Source of the DNA: Eledone cirrhosa
Lineage: Eukaryota
NCBI GenBank assembly: GCA_964016885.1
Contig: OZ024760.1
Coordinates: forward strand, 25,110,001 to 25,174,000
Length of the DNA: 64,000 bases
Direction of reading: 5' to 3'
Part shown: positions 14,049 through 24,200 of the stretch, piece by piece
Numbering within the stretch: the stretch's first letter is position 1
How the letters are laid out: every line of letters begins with the position of its first letter
The notes under the pieces: generated by a model
What the model was told of the DNA's origin: nothing
The model's input: only the letters and a program-made list of their open reading frames with translations
Databases searched by the model: none
Made by a program: the position numbers and the translations under genes

Positions 14049-14099
14049 GAATAAGGAAAAGCGAAGTAGTTTCAGATGTTCAAGTCCTTTAATAATAAT

Positions 14100-14173
14100 G
14101 CTGTGATATATATTTCAATGGCGAGACTGGCCACACTGTTCTGTGTGCGAGTGTCGTGACATCATCAGACAGC
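14100..14173 (-). ncRNA. Type I hammerhead ribozyme (mirror copy)
   Basis: Reverse complement of 14377-14450 with a single substitution. Confidence 0.8.
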
Positions 14174-14376
14174 TTGTTACATAATAAGGTTATGTTTCCG
14201 AGGCAATCTGCGGTAGCTAATGGTCAACTTCCTTCGGACATGCGCTTGCGCATACCGGTGGGGGTGAATTGGTACTCACAGGGGAACGGGTGATAAACCC
14301 AAAAGCACGCATTTCATCCGTTCCCATGTCGATTCAATTTGGATTGCCTCGGAAACATAACCTTATTATGTAACAA

Positions 14377-14450
14377 GCTGTCTGATGATGTCACGACACT
14401 CGCACACAGAACAGTGTGGCCAGTGTCGCCATTGAAATATATATCACAGC
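14377..14450 (+). ncRNA. Type I hammerhead ribozyme
   Basis: GCTGT-CTGATGA-stem II (GACACT/AGTGTC, CACAC/GTGTG)-GAAA-TATAT-ATC^ACAGC; palindromic minimal stem III. Confidence 0.85.
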
Positions 14451-14995
14451 ATTATTATTAAAGGACTTGAACATCTGAAACTACTTCTCTTTTCTTATTC
14501 GATATTTACTCCGTCACTCCTATGTGGAAAAAGTACGTTGAGTGCTTGAATTGAATTGCATCAATGTTTACCCTAATATATATATATATATATATATATA
14601 TATATATATATATATATATATATATATATATATATATGTACATATATTATTCATAATGTTAACAAATGAAAGATATTCACATAATCAAAATATATACTTT
14701 TTTATATATATTTGAAAGGTACTGTATGTATATATATATATATATATATATATATATATATATATATATATATATAATATATATATATATTTATATATAT
14801 AATATATATATTTATATATATATATTGTGGAGACATATATATACGTACATATATATATATATATAGATACATATATATATACATACATATATATATATGC
14901 ATACATATATATATACATACATATATATATATATACATACATATATATATATATATATATATATATATATATATATATATATATATACATACATA

Positions 14996-16040
14996 CTGAA
15001 GCAACACCTTCAACAGAGGAAAAAGTTTGGCAACCATCTTGCCCAGATTTATGAGCATGAACAAACAAATATCATTAGAATAGCGACTGATCTGGAGGAG
15101 AGATGGAATAAAGCCTGATATAAATCTCTCACCCAGAGAAATCGGAAGATCCTATTCAATGTTCAAACAAGATTAAAAAATTGACCAATTTACAGAAAAA
15201 GTTGTTCATGGATACTGAGACGTAAAACAGACCATAGAGGGAATAAACCACTCAAAAGCCTGGCATGGAGTTCCGACAAGTTTATGACATCACACCTTGA
15301 GGGATATCTCTATGCAATACAGGAACAAGAACTCCCTACCAAATATCTGCTGCACAAAAGAGGAGGGCCAGCAGATGACAATAAATGTAGGCTATGTAAA
15401 ACAAAGATCGAGGATGTAAGCCACATTGTTGCCAGCTGCGAAAGAATGTCATCTCGTTACTACCTCCCCATGAGACACGATGGGATAGCTAGAACCATCT
15501 GGAACGCACTTCGGAAAACAAAATTAACAACAAACGAGGAAGAATATATTGAGACAGATGGCACTAAGGAATACTGGTGGAACCTGAAAATAAAAACTGC
15601 CACCAAATTAAAGCACAACCGGCCTGATATTGTAGTTTGGGACCACACATTGAAAACGTGTTCTGTTGTGGAGTTCAGCTGCCCAATTGATGTAAACGTT
15701 GTCAGAAAAATACAGGAGAAGGAGGACATCTACGGACATTTGATGAGGAGTTTACAAATCCAGTATCCAAGAAACACCTTTAGCTTCATACCCATCATTA
15801 TTGGAGCTACGGGTTATATACCAACCCGCTTGGACCAAAGTATGACTGAACGTGGATTTGCGGACAAAAAGCGCTGCTCCCTAATTCATAGTCTACAAAT
15901 GGCTGCGATAGCGGGCACCTTCAAAATTTGCAAAAGATTCTTGCGATTCGAGGGATGACAATTTCTTTTCTTTTACAACCTTTCCACCAAGAAGGTGGCC
16001 GGTCCCAAAAATATACTCGAAATTAAGAGAAAGAGATAAC
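14996..16040 (+). mobile_element. R4/Dong-like non-LTR retrotransposon 3' fragment (CCHC finger plus restriction-like endonuclease)
   Basis: ORF 15284-15958: CRLC..EDVSHIVASC, RHD, HNRPDIVVWD..VEFSCP..EK..Y (PD-(D/E)xK type RLE). Confidence 0.85.
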
Positions 16041-16074
16041 ATATATATATACATACATACATACATACATATAT

Positions 16075-17452
16075 ATTCTGATCGCAGATTTGGTACGAGT
16101 GATGAAGAATGTGTTCCGCATGTGCGACCCAACAGAAATGGAAAGACGCATCCAACACTTCATCAACCGCATGCAGTTCTCTGGCTACAACCAAAGAGAC
16201 AGAGTCAGAGTATACGAAGGAGCCATGGAGAAGTATAAGACCCTCATAGAACTGGACATGAAAGGAATTTGCCCATTATACAGGAGCAAATCATCGAATA
16301 GCTTAGATAGGGCTAGACATAAGATAGGGAAAGCCACCTGATGGTACGACAACCAAAGATACCAGAGTGACATGTTTGTGGACGCTACCCCTGGAGGGAA
16401 ATTAGCTAACCAGTGTAGAAAGGCCCTGAGAAAGACCCACTTAAAGATTAAGGTGGTAGAAAAGCCAGGAAACACCATAAAATTCCTGATCAGCAAAACC
16501 TACCCTTTTAAGAAACCCACTGTACTAATAGGAAATATATCATATGTAAGGTAAACCCCCGGATAAACTGTAAAACTAGAAACGTAGTTTATAGCATAAG
16601 ATGTACAGAGGTTTCTTGCAGAAACATGACTACAACATACATAGGCGAGACAGCTCGTAGCATAGTTGAAAGGATAGACCAACACTGGGCGAACTAAAAG
16701 GACGAAAAAACGGTTCAGTACTATACGAACATGCCAGACAACAACACGACGTTAACATAGACAACATAGAAATTAGAATAATATCTAAACATAGAAATGA
16801 CCCAGCAGATAGGCAAATCAGAGAGGCCAGTGAAATAGAACTTAGAAGGCCAAGACTAAACAGAAAGAATGAATGGAATAACAACAACACCCAAACAAAC
16901 AACACTGACCTAAGAAAAGTATAAATAAATAAATAAATAAATAGATGAATAAATAAATAAATACATACACAAGCACAATAACAACAAACACATATAAACA
17001 CACACTAGTAAAGATAGAATACATTAACCGATACACAGTCACCCAATCACGAACACACATCAAACAAAACACTATACACACACGCAAACGCATGCGCAAA
17101 GAAGAGAAAATAAAATAAACAAACAAACAAATAAATAAATAAATATATAAACAGACTAAATAAAGATGTCGTAAACATACAATGTTACGGGAGGAAACAA
17201 TAGCATCACTGACGATGTTGCAGATGTGCAACGAAAGAACTTTGATAAACTATATATATGTGTTTGTGTCTATATTGTATTTGTATTATTTTTGACCGTT
17301 GGTCAGTCAATGGCAACATTGAGGACCGAATAAATTAGATTACCGATATAAAAGACACAGAAGCGAAAAGCGAAAACCAACCAAACAGTGAGTGTGTTCT
17401 GTTAGTAATTCTGGCAATATTACACAAATATGACCCTCCCCAAGTATAACAA
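16075..17452 (+). mobile_element. Decayed Penelope-like element of a second family (RT thumb, linker, GIY-YIG, pLTR)
   Basis: RMQFSGY, MFVDATPGG..IKVVEKPG, YIGETARS..ERIDQHW..SVLYEHARQQH, with stops and frameshifts. Ends TGACCCTCCCCAAGTATAAC before TA-rich repeat. Confidence 0.8.
17205..17246 (+). ncRNA. Minimal hammerhead-like motif in the PLE pLTR
   Basis: ATCA-CTGACGA-T-GTTGCA(GATG)TGCAAC-GAAA-GAA-CTT^TGAT. Confidence 0.65.
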
Positions 17453-17759
17453 TACATATATATATACATACACACACACCCATATATATATATACATATA
17501 TATATATATATGTATGTATGTATGTATGTATGCGTGTGTGTGTGTGTATGTATATATGACTGTGTGTGTGTGTGTGTGTATACACATATATATAAATGGA
17601 AGAATGAAATGTTCTGCAATCCATTAGTTGAAGTGGATTTACATAAATTACATTCATAAACTAAGTTGAATATGTAGGAATAGGTTTTATTTCTTTGGTA
17701 CAACTAGGAATTACCATTGTTAGAATTTTTATTTTAACACCACCCTCGTTGATACACAA

Positions 17760-22712: not shown

Positions 22713-22729
22713 AATGGAAAAAGATTGGT

Positions 22730-22800
22730 GATCTGTTGGTGTAATGGTAGCACAGTGGTCTGGATAACCAAAGATGTGGGTTCGACTCCCATATACATCA
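22730..22800 (+). tRNA. tRNA-like cloverleaf (pseudo-tRNA, apparent GGA anticodon, short variable loop)
   Basis: Acceptor GATCTGT/ATACATC (one mismatch, one G-U), D arm GTG..CAC with TAATGGTAG, anticodon arm TGGT-CTGGATA-ACCA, T arm GTGGG-TTCGACT-CCCAT. Confidence 0.55.
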
Positions 22801-22959
22801 ATACTCATCTTTTTCCATTTATCTGAGGGTTCTAAACCCCATTATAAGACTGAAATTTCTTTAGTAAAAAAAAATACGGAGAAAGCTATTCTATTTTCTA
22901 ATTTCAACACAGCTCACTGTTTCAAAACATACTTACATATAAATATATATATATATATA

Positions 22960-23450
22960 GGAGGTGAGTTTTATTGTATCACAATAAAGCAATGCAGTTT
23001 ATAGGTCTGGAGTATAAATAATATAAGATCAAAAGATCGTTAAAAGAGATCAAGTATTTTATTATCTTCCAACGGTTTTTTAATTTCTCTCTGTGAGACA
23101 ATGTTTTCTCAGTTGTAAAGGCTATTTCTCTCTCTTTATCACTCATCTCTCCTCCTCTCTCTTCCTTCCTTCTTATACTCCTCCCCCATCATCCTTTATT
23201 TTCTTTCTTTCTCTTCCTTACATTTTCCTACCCTCCCCTCCTTTTTTCCCAATCTCATATATCCATCTTACTTTATTTTTCATGTGTTGATTTAAAACTT
23301 CACTGCTCACAAGTGTTTTTTAAGCTTCATATCATGTCTCCCTATTTTATCTGATGAGAACGCAAATATCATCCCATGATGATATTTGTTTTTGAAATGT
23401 GCATAATAAAATACTTGGAACTCTTTTAACCATCCTTTGATCTTATATTA
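22960..23450. mobile_element. PLE pLTR with a short inverted 3' copy in (TA)n
   Basis: 23019-23065 is reverse-complementary to 23403-23450. Pyrimidine tract then a hammerhead. Shares CTGGAGTATAAA with 18560-18956. Confidence 0.75.
23344..23412 (+). ncRNA. Type I hammerhead ribozyme
   Basis: ATTTTAT-CTGATGA-CAAATATCATC(CCAT)GATGATATTTG-GAAA-TGTGC-ATA^ATAAAAT. Confidence 0.85.
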
Positions 23451-23779
23451 TATATATATATATACAAATCATTCACCATAACTTATAAAACAACACACAT
23501 CTCTAAGTCTGTAATGTTGTTTAACAGGTGTGCATGACATTCACGTTGTAAAGTAATTTAGGAGAGGCGTTATATTTAATTATTAAACTAGGGAAAGGAA
23601 GTAATAAAAAGCTATTTAGTTTGAACGATTGGGCGGGGGCTTCGATGGAACGTGTAGATTGGCATGTGTGTTGTGTGTTGAGGTGTAGGTAGGTGGTTAG
23701 GATATATGAGGTCCTGCATTTACGTTAGAATAGTTTATTGTTTTCAGATCCAGTTTGCAAGATGGAAGTAATTCACCAC

Positions 23780-23972
23780 CCAACCATCACCACCATCACC
23801 AACCATCACCAATGTCTCATGTTGTTCAATTGCTCTTCTACGCATCAAAATATTTAATAGACCTTTCCCTTCCACCGTCCAACCATCACCACCATCACCA
23901 ATGTCTCTGAGTTGTTCAAGTGCTCTTCTACGCATCAAAATATTTAATAGACCTTTCCCTTCCACCGTCCAA
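23780..23972. repeat. Direct tandem duplication of about 90-100 bp
   Basis: TGCTCTTCTACGCATCAAAATATTTAATAGACCTTTCCCTTCCACCGTCCAA occurs twice. Confidence 0.9.
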
Positions 23973-24026
23973 CAAATAAATTATATATATATACATATAT
24001 ATATATATATATATATATATATATAT

Positions 24027-24200
24027 CACGATAAATTAACGGAGCCATAGACTCTCGCTATTCCCTGTCAATAATGTGCTCAAAGGAGAAGAAATCCTGA
24101 GCTCTTTAAAATACAATATGTTGAAAAGGTTTTTCCCTGTTTTATTGATAGCACACCGTATCTCTCTCTAGTGTGTTACCTTTTCAATATATTGTATTTT
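24027..24200. mobile_element. Short fold-back remnant in (TA)n
   Basis: AAAATACAATATGTTGAAAAGGT (about 24108-24130) vs ACCTTTTCAATATATTGTATTTT (24178-24200). Confidence 0.55.

Follow-up and report, generated by a model that had tools for sequence, protein, structure and literature searches.

Fold-Back Elements in (TA)n

The fold-back elements considered here lie in a 64,000-nucleotide stretch of the octopod Eledone cirrhosa genome (assembly GCA_964016885.1, contig OZ024760.1, positions 25,110,001 to 25,174,000 of the forward strand), hereafter the window, whose first letter is position 1. Between positions 14,049 and 24,200, the window holds seven inverted pairs, E1 to E7, in unique DNA separated by (TA)n runs (Table 1). 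An eighth pair, E0, lies outside this region, has the same build, and encodes part of a reverse transcriptase (RT) with a GIY-YIG endonuclease. The fold-backs are probably 5′-truncated insertions of endonuclease-bearing Penelope-like elements (PLEs), mostly of the Hydra clade, each likely to have arisen from two primings on opposite strands of nicked (TA)n.

All seven inverted pairs listed in a preliminary description of this DNA are recovered by self-BLAST, a scan for TA-bounded islands, and arm alignments, and all are bounded by TA; the ranges given there for E6 and E7, however, are those of whole islands rather than of arms, the arms of these two being short compared with those of the other listed pairs. 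One end of each repeat lies 0–1 nt from a TA run, while the opposite end lies 39–184 nt away. A tail is thus present at exactly one outer end in 8/8 pairs (E0–E7), and the length of 35–180 bp proposed earlier becomes 39–184 bp on measurement. Because an internal TA run interrupts the E3 island, the break-point comparison supplies the tail length of E3. Based on the strand of the hammerhead, E0, E1, E3, and E6 consist of head-to-head inverted 5′-truncated copies with their 3′ ends outward; the orientation of the other pairs is assigned by tail motif or by analogy. The arms duplicate 22–1410 bp of element sequence (E0–E7), and those of E1–E7 differ by 1–9% substitutions plus indels. E1–E7 carry no open reading frame (ORF), and tblastn links no ORF of the window to their families. 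No poly(A) is seen at any outer end, and a target-site duplication is not visible because the insertion lies inside (TA)n.

Inverted repeats occur in 15 of the 43 TA-bounded islands of the window, while five shuffles gave 0–4. The one-end-flush rule holds for nine of the 43, namely E1–E7, E0, and a doubtful palindrome at 30618-30693. Seven of these nine sit in the 10 kb first described, which is therefore a local high in fold-back density, and the figure of about seven hairpins per 10 kb offered as a general rate does not describe the window. The arms occupy 1947 of the 10,152 bp of that region.

Table 1. Fold-back elements, with the number of matches (of eight) between the tail and the TA flank at the break
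Element	Span	Arms, loop, or spacer	Tail	Arm identity	Hammerhead	Tail motif	TA matches
E0	7830..11195	long tail-less arm 9639-7830 (-); sense arm 9640-11050; spacer 401 bp	11051-11195 (145 bp)	0 substitutions, one indel over ~1410 bp	10889-11000 (+); 7991-7880 (-)		7
P0001 of E0	9639-8488 (-)	on tail-less arm; predicted RT C-terminus, CxCx5C linker, GIY-YIG					
E1	14049..14575	inverted tail-less arm 14049-14208 (-); spacer 133 bp; sense arm 14342-14500 (+)	14501-14575 (75 bp)	98.7%	14377-14450 (+); 14173-14100 (-); one per arm	ACTC 14508 / GAGT 14540	6
E2	18254..18532	palindrome 18254-18494; 8-nt loop	39 bp	97.4%			6
E3	18560..18956	palindrome 18649-18955; 14-nt loop	left, 18560-18648 (-), ~88 bp	92.4%	18751-18694 (-)	ACTC 18642 / GAGT 18623	2
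E4	19142..20016	three arms; aligned pair 19142-19371 / 19710-19941; minus strand, tail-bearing unit 19702-19567, linker, tail-less unit 19371-19142 (partial tandem); plus strand, arm 19703-19941	plus strand, 19942-20016 (~75 bp)	91.3% (aligned arms)		GCTC 19953 / GAGC 19975	5
E5	21757..22211	palindrome 21757-22028; 18-nt loop	22028-22211 (184 bp)	96.9%		GCTC 22037 / TTGAGCAC near 22103	5
E5b	22480..22942	palindrome 22515-22713; tRNA-like gene 22729-22801; second direct arm 22869-22939, tail-less end at (TA)n; unit ~258 bp; left boundary uncertain					
E6	22960..23448	short arm 23021-23065 (-); paired arm 23403-23448 (~46 bp); long tail-less sense arm ending at 23448	left, 22960-23020 (61 bp)	93.3%	23343-23413 (+), on long tail-less sense arm		7
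E7	24027..24199	24109-24130 / 24178-24199 (22-24 bp)	left, 24027-24108 (-), 82 bp	95.5% over 22 bp		GCTC 24102 / TTGAGCAC near 24081	4

Two of the loci in Table 1 are partial tandems, E4 with a unit of ~510 bp and E5b, and neither unit holds an intact hammerhead core. The tail of E4 is present on two of its copies, the third arm (19567-19702) carrying it as well. E5b is absent from the preliminary description; a short inverted repeat flanks its tRNA-like gene, a degenerate hammerhead-like core is discernible by eye near 22823, and the locus is possibly a tRNA-headed non-autonomous PLE derivative. E2 has neither a hammerhead nor the tail motif described below, its tail folds as a single stem-loop after ATATAT, and there is no second copy of it in the window and no match to a 25-mer from it in a metagenome scan. 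It is assigned to the PLEs by architecture and may instead be a miniature inverted-repeat transposable element (MITE).

Hammerheads, Break Points, and Tail Motif

A descriptor scan for type I hammerheads yields 12 matches in the window, compared to 0–1 in each of 10 shuffles. They include E0, E1 (both arms), E3, and E6, bearing out the earlier report of three hammerhead-carrying families for E1, E3, and E6; all are predicted hammerheads. Rfam at its gathering score reports only tRNA and no hammerhead in the window. Neither the descriptor nor a relaxed scan finds an intact core in E4 or E5, and the relaxed scan adds none for E2 or E7.

To assess the point at which the tail-less arm ends, its TA flank was compared with the eight bases that the tail-bearing arm has past the break. 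Over E1–E7, 35 of 56 bases match, while 22.2 are expected from all positions in the same arms (P=2e-4), and the summed perfect run is 20 versus an expected 6.2 (P=2e-4). The TA microhomology claimed earlier is thus above background, and the three examples quoted for it (18494, 22028, and 23450) are present at those places. The break is 55, 56, 53, and 44 nt past the hammerhead cut in E0, E1, E3, and E6, respectively, and 52 nt past it in a single copy at 59931. Because this distance recurs at 44–56 nt, the internal end behaves as a programmed site. The exception is another family, F, near 17205, where the break is 7 nt past the cut; in the F pair 31290/45460, which lies outside E1–E7, the TA-match run is 9 nt.

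The tails themselves share a short motif. RCTC no more than 16 nt from the break, followed by GAGY, occurs in seven of 12 tails (E0, E1, E3, E4, E5, E7, and that at 47036), the expectation being 0.2 for a motif that was picked after the data had been seen and in families that are related. ACTC pairs with GAGT and GCTC with GAGC in 7/7 cases; the tails of E2, E6, E5b, 45460, and 61600 lack the full motif. By eye, the published ends of Hydra-2_Amil and Hydra-2_Ajap contain a TA-like or pyrimidine run and GCTC...WGAGCAC ~40 nt past the hammerhead cut, the latter directly after TATATAT in Hydra-2_Ajap, and Hydra-1_Crog has TATATA and then GCTC with a partial closing strand. Three other new Hydra consensus ends stop 25–45 nt past the hammerhead, ahead of any such motif. 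The shared tail motif ties E4, E5, and E7 to Hydra-type ends despite their lack of a hammerhead. A description of the TA-like box followed by the RCTC...GAGY stem, or of the tail-less long arm discussed below, was not found in the literature searched, outside of which lie most subscription papers, including the PLE papers of 2005–2006. Separately, 12 metagenome matches to a hammerhead plus TATACTC were rejected as chance, since all are devoid of TA runs, inverted repeats, and likeness to the window.

An Enzyme-Coding Copy and Its Family

E0 is a young Hydra-type PLE by the look of its sequence. Its predicted protein, P0001, is 28–34% identical to five full-length RT/GIY-YIG proteins. A CxCx5C linker at residue 244 precedes the C-terminal GIY-YIG domain; CCHH is absent, with a single Cys visible between VY and YIG, and CxxC at 342 and CxH at 370 surround conserved E and N residues. 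RW[K/R] and ADKT are found in four of the five full-length homologs, and the corresponding region is lost in E0. The insertion lies in (TA)n and carries a canonical hammerhead. Judged by the motif criteria of PMC8557442, E0 is a predicted PLE of the Hydra clade, with which it shares the C-terminal GIY-YIG, the CxCx5C linker without CCHH, the terminal CxxC and CxH, the hammerhead, the (TA)n target, and an octopod host, in addition to 3′ ends similar to those of Hydra-2_Amil and Hydra-2_Ajap. A (TA)n preference is described for Hydra-1_Obim of Octopus bimaculoides (PMC8557442). E0 appears to be a separate family because its protein, hammerhead, and 3′ end differ from those of Hydra-1_Obim by eye.

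Four public sequencing runs, which may not be independent of the assembly, were aligned to positions 9239-11210 at 85% likeness. Ends at 11056 followed by (TA)n occur in 142 of 2884 aligned reads of run X14 and 12 of 1648 aligned contigs of run X1; the tail-less end of E0 is family-wide. Summed contig depth in X1, which is not a copy number, rises about 15-fold, from ~4,700 at 9239-9304 to ~73,000 at 10955-11020. This rise toward the 3′ end indicates 5′ truncation across E0-family copies. In all four runs, the E0 spacer and the arm are joined as in the normal element, which assigns the spacer to the tail-less arm. At the central junction of E0, the true upstream sequence reveals no microhomology. 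Two sets of candidates were rejected: the opposite-strand joint of 9239 to 9640 reflects the normal continuity of the element at the margin of the aligned stretch rather than a fold-back junction, and piles of X14 ends at 10368, 10503, 10946, and 11011 (agreement 0.36-0.38) were set aside as probable restriction-site ends.

Relation to Known Systems

The pattern is a known PLE insertion signature and not a new general mechanism, as the preliminary description had it. PLE insertions often include an adjacent inverted 5′-truncated copy and a one-sided tail of 30–40 bp together with a hammerhead and a (TA)n target (Craig et al. 2021, PMC8557442), and inverted pseudo-long terminal repeats (pLTRs) and 3′ extensions are described as routine PLE features (PMC8969392). 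Among rotifer PLEs, head-to-head repeats meet at palindromic junctions, and the target duplications are normal (Arkhipova et al. 2013, PMC3846280); the inverted pLTRs of these elements have ordinary 8–10 bp duplications, and the self-complementarity of (TA)n on which the earlier interpretation relied is consequently not required for the inversion. The E. cirrhosa elements share with such complex insertions of endonuclease-bearing PLEs the head-to-head inversion, the tail at one end, 5′ truncation, partial tandems, palindromic junctions, a microsatellite target, and, in E0, E1, E3, and E6, a type I hammerhead near the 3′ end. They differ in their longer tails (39–184 versus 30–40 bp) and in that most copies are pLTR-only stubs. 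In the available parts of PMC8557442 and PMC3846280, there is no TA-like box with an RCTC/GAGY stem at the start of the tail. The elements are probably new octopod members of Hydra and related TA-targeting PLEs; the fixed TA-like start and the conserved stem hint at how reverse transcription probably begins twice and, like the tail-less long arm, can be tested.

The closest biochemical counterpart is PAc, a Poseidon element of Anolis carolinensis whose protein, a predicted dimer, cleaves both DNA strands and extends each of them (Frangieh et al. 2024, PMC11167929). Its tail is bounded by two RNA start sites, the start site being non-homologous to the target (PMC11167929). Shared traits are the AT-rich DNA, the use of both strands, two starts downstream of the hammerhead, and a stem-loop at the start region; PAc belongs to another clade, however, and the internal site resembles the (TA)n target in the Eledone elements, while the PAc sites do not resemble theirs.

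Classical twin priming of L1 generates an inversion in which internal sequence is deleted (Meyer et al. 2010, PMC2837659). With L1 twin or dual priming, the present elements would share a second priming that uses an internal microhomology and the other strand of the target, but L1 displays a deletion and a poly(A) tail, whereas up to 1.4 kb is duplicated here and the internal site is fixed. The twin priming originally proposed is therefore likely in its second, opposite-strand priming and not in its classical L1 form. Dual priming on two RNAs fits the duplication better than twin priming does. Metazoan non-LTR retrozymes (bioRxiv 10.64898/2026.07.22.740005) are likewise short, non-coding, pLTR-related units; they differ in having two consecutive intact hammerheads, which E4 and E5b lack, and the inverted build lies outside their definition.

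Proposed Route of Integration

Retro-integration by two priming events, with an internal start at a TA-like motif, finds support in the ends of the E0 family, the microhomology, and the tail motif. In E0 and E6, either arm holds sequence missing from the other. Simple copying of a fold-back could not produce this, and two primings are implied. A GIY-YIG endonuclease would nick both strands of (TA)n, and RT would start twice, at the far end of the tail and at the internal TA-like box, which probably pairs with the nicked repeat. Both cDNAs would stop early, and the junction of their ends in the middle would involve little microhomology or none. The loops of 8–18 nt in E2, E3, and E5 suggest that the two cDNAs frequently end at a common point. 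In 4/4 orientable cases, namely, E0 (by its ORF and reads), E6 (by its hammerhead), and E4 and E5b (by their direct repeats), the long arm is tail-less. More speculatively, two RTs might copy a single RNA, the one primed internally being in advance of the other; this would account for both the tail-less long arm and the near-identical stop points. Two RNAs, or a fold-back in some copies, would also be compatible with the data.

A number of observations weigh against this interpretation. The rule of the tail-less long arm has an n of 4, and two of these cases, E4 and E5b, may represent nested insertions. No intact hammerhead is found in E4, E5, or E7, both hammerhead and tail motif are missing from E2, and E6 and E5b have ACTC but no GAGY. 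The TA matches of E3 (2/8) and E7 (4/8) are unremarkable singly, and the match may merely reflect an AT-rich start signal; pairing with the target is not general to PLEs because the RNA start sites of PAc are non-homologous to the DNA that is cut. Compared with their shuffles, none of the tails has a much better fold (z -1.9 to +0.8), and RCTC/GAGY is the predicted minimum-energy stem in some tails only. Pfam assigns no family to the E0 frame. Among the best-supported matches listed from the sequencing runs, there is no opposite-strand joint inside the arm and no record that bridges the junction of E0 itself, although single-copy junctions are easily lost; other head-to-head joints among the matches listed number two only (one in two reads, one in a contig).

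A bolder version of the two-priming route, which is tentative and rather doubtful, posits a cassette common to the Hydra clade, consisting of the hammerhead, ~45–60 nt, a (TA)n-pairing box, and an RCTC/GAGY stem on which the RT docks. An RT dimer would prime both strands on one RNA with the internal cDNA ahead, and the hairpins would be a routine product of integration as well as under-annotated substrates of octopod ADAR. The stem would position RT just 3′ of the copied template. An analogy is provided by telomerase, in which RNA elements outside the template position TERT.

Alternative Explanations

The most serious alternative, albeit an improbable one, is that a single cDNA folds back, or a transcript primes itself, and the hairpin arises by copying, the first arm serving as the template of the second. 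Loops as small as 8, 14, and 18 nt in E2, E3, and E5 would be improbable from two independent random truncations, the arms of E0 are free of substitutions, and self-priming has been proposed for palindromic junctions of PLEs (PMC3846280). A copy, however, cannot hold sequence that is absent from its template. The spacer of E0 continues the ORF of the tail-less arm and that of E6 holds the hammerhead of the tail-less arm, while in both the tail is on the other arm, which disfavors this route. Alternatively, both arms could have been inserted with tails, one of which was subsequently lost through a deletion running from the internal TA-like box to the flanking (TA)n. Such a deletion predicts the same microhomology and the same recurrent end, but it is very unlikely given that one outer end is tail-less in 8/8 pairs, including the substitution-free E0, and that the start sites of PAc in vitro bound the tail directly (PMC11167929).

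Still less probable is that some of the elements are palindromic MITEs or foldback DNA transposons that target TA repeats, the tail being unrelated flank. Mutator-like elements that target TA microsatellites reportedly exist (PMC4486113), and E2, which has no hammerhead, tail motif, or second copy, could pass for a symmetric palindrome lying between (TA)n and ATATAT. The hammerheads of E1, E3, and E6, the tail on two E4 copies, the Hydra-type tail motif in E1, E3, E4, E5, and E7, and the RT and GIY-YIG sequence encoded by E0 all argue otherwise. MITEs with symmetric terminal inverted repeats, the outcome that the preliminary description regarded as fatal to its view, are ruled out for six of the seven by their asymmetric ends, with E2 as the possible member. 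That the hairpins are chimeras of sequencing or assembly is scarcely credible: the lack of a record bridging the central junction of E0 among the matches listed would accord with it, but the arms of E1–E7 have diverged from each other by substitutions and indels, and they end on a family-wide site seen in public runs.

Implications for RNA Duplexes and Annotation

If the elements are read through, the predicted folds of E1–E5 range from -166 to -396 kcal/mol, with E6 and E7 far less stable. Transcribed hairpins would thus form long RNA duplexes, and there is no sign that they outweigh ordinary inverted interspersed repeats. A search for RNA data sets that contain the E0 stretch listed none, a result with no bearing on expression. 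Young repeats are reported as the principal ADAR substrates of animals, cephalopods among them (PMC9989829); in squid, the same holds for non-coding RNA (PMC9068888). In Octopus vulgaris, 31 PLE families were recently active, while LINEs (long interspersed elements) and SINEs (short interspersed elements) are the most abundant orders (PMC13282606).

The formation of inverted structures by PLEs and their choice of microsatellites are named as outstanding questions in PMC8557442. The fixed TA-like start, the stem conserved in the tails, and the tail-less long arm translate into mutations and counts that can be tested, and they contrast with the non-homologous initiation of PAc. Palindromes of this type could also be mis-annotated as MITEs.

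Other Repeats in the Window

A PLE of another type lies at 16052..17455 (+); it is TA-bounded, 5′-truncated, frameshifted, and not inverted, with a C-terminal GIY-YIG-like reading and a hammerhead at 17205-17246. A relative at 31274-31949 ends at an internal TATATATAT, through which the copy at 45463-46012 reads, and 34880-35150 is listed with these three. Single-arm relatives of the E3/E6 hammerhead type are found at 44884-45419, 59826-59950 (tail-less), and 61525-61762 (with a tail).

Two older inverted pairs are present. That at 46705-47098 (81%) surrounds a TA run; beyond it lie a hammerhead-like core near 46967 and then a tail that contains ACTC/GAGT and ends at (TA)n. The other, 30343-30412 with 31978-32038, has its TA-abutting ends inward around later insertions, a geometry opposite to that of E1–E7. 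The palindrome at 30618-30693 (97%) consists of low-complexity TA/CA/TG sequence with one end flush with (TA)n and may be a fold-back borne by a microsatellite rather than a PLE.

Other repeat classes are represented as well. A near-intact LINE at 52800-58040 has a 592-aa ORF1 and a 1153-aa endonuclease-RT ORF2, and a 3′ copy of it at 50260-51776 is 99% identical; its nearest named relative, from Argonauta hians, is 66% identical (one match reaches 74% and the next ~51%), which makes an octopod host likely. Fragments of the 3′ end of another non-LTR element lie at 15185-15958, which contains a zf-RVT match, and at 25174-25542. A repeat that appears SINE-like occurs as 19 pieces in the window, including 20533-21161, in both orientations and often as partial tandems, and is an ordinary source of inverted pairs. 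Finally, a tandem array with a period of ~45 bp occupies 36837-38850.

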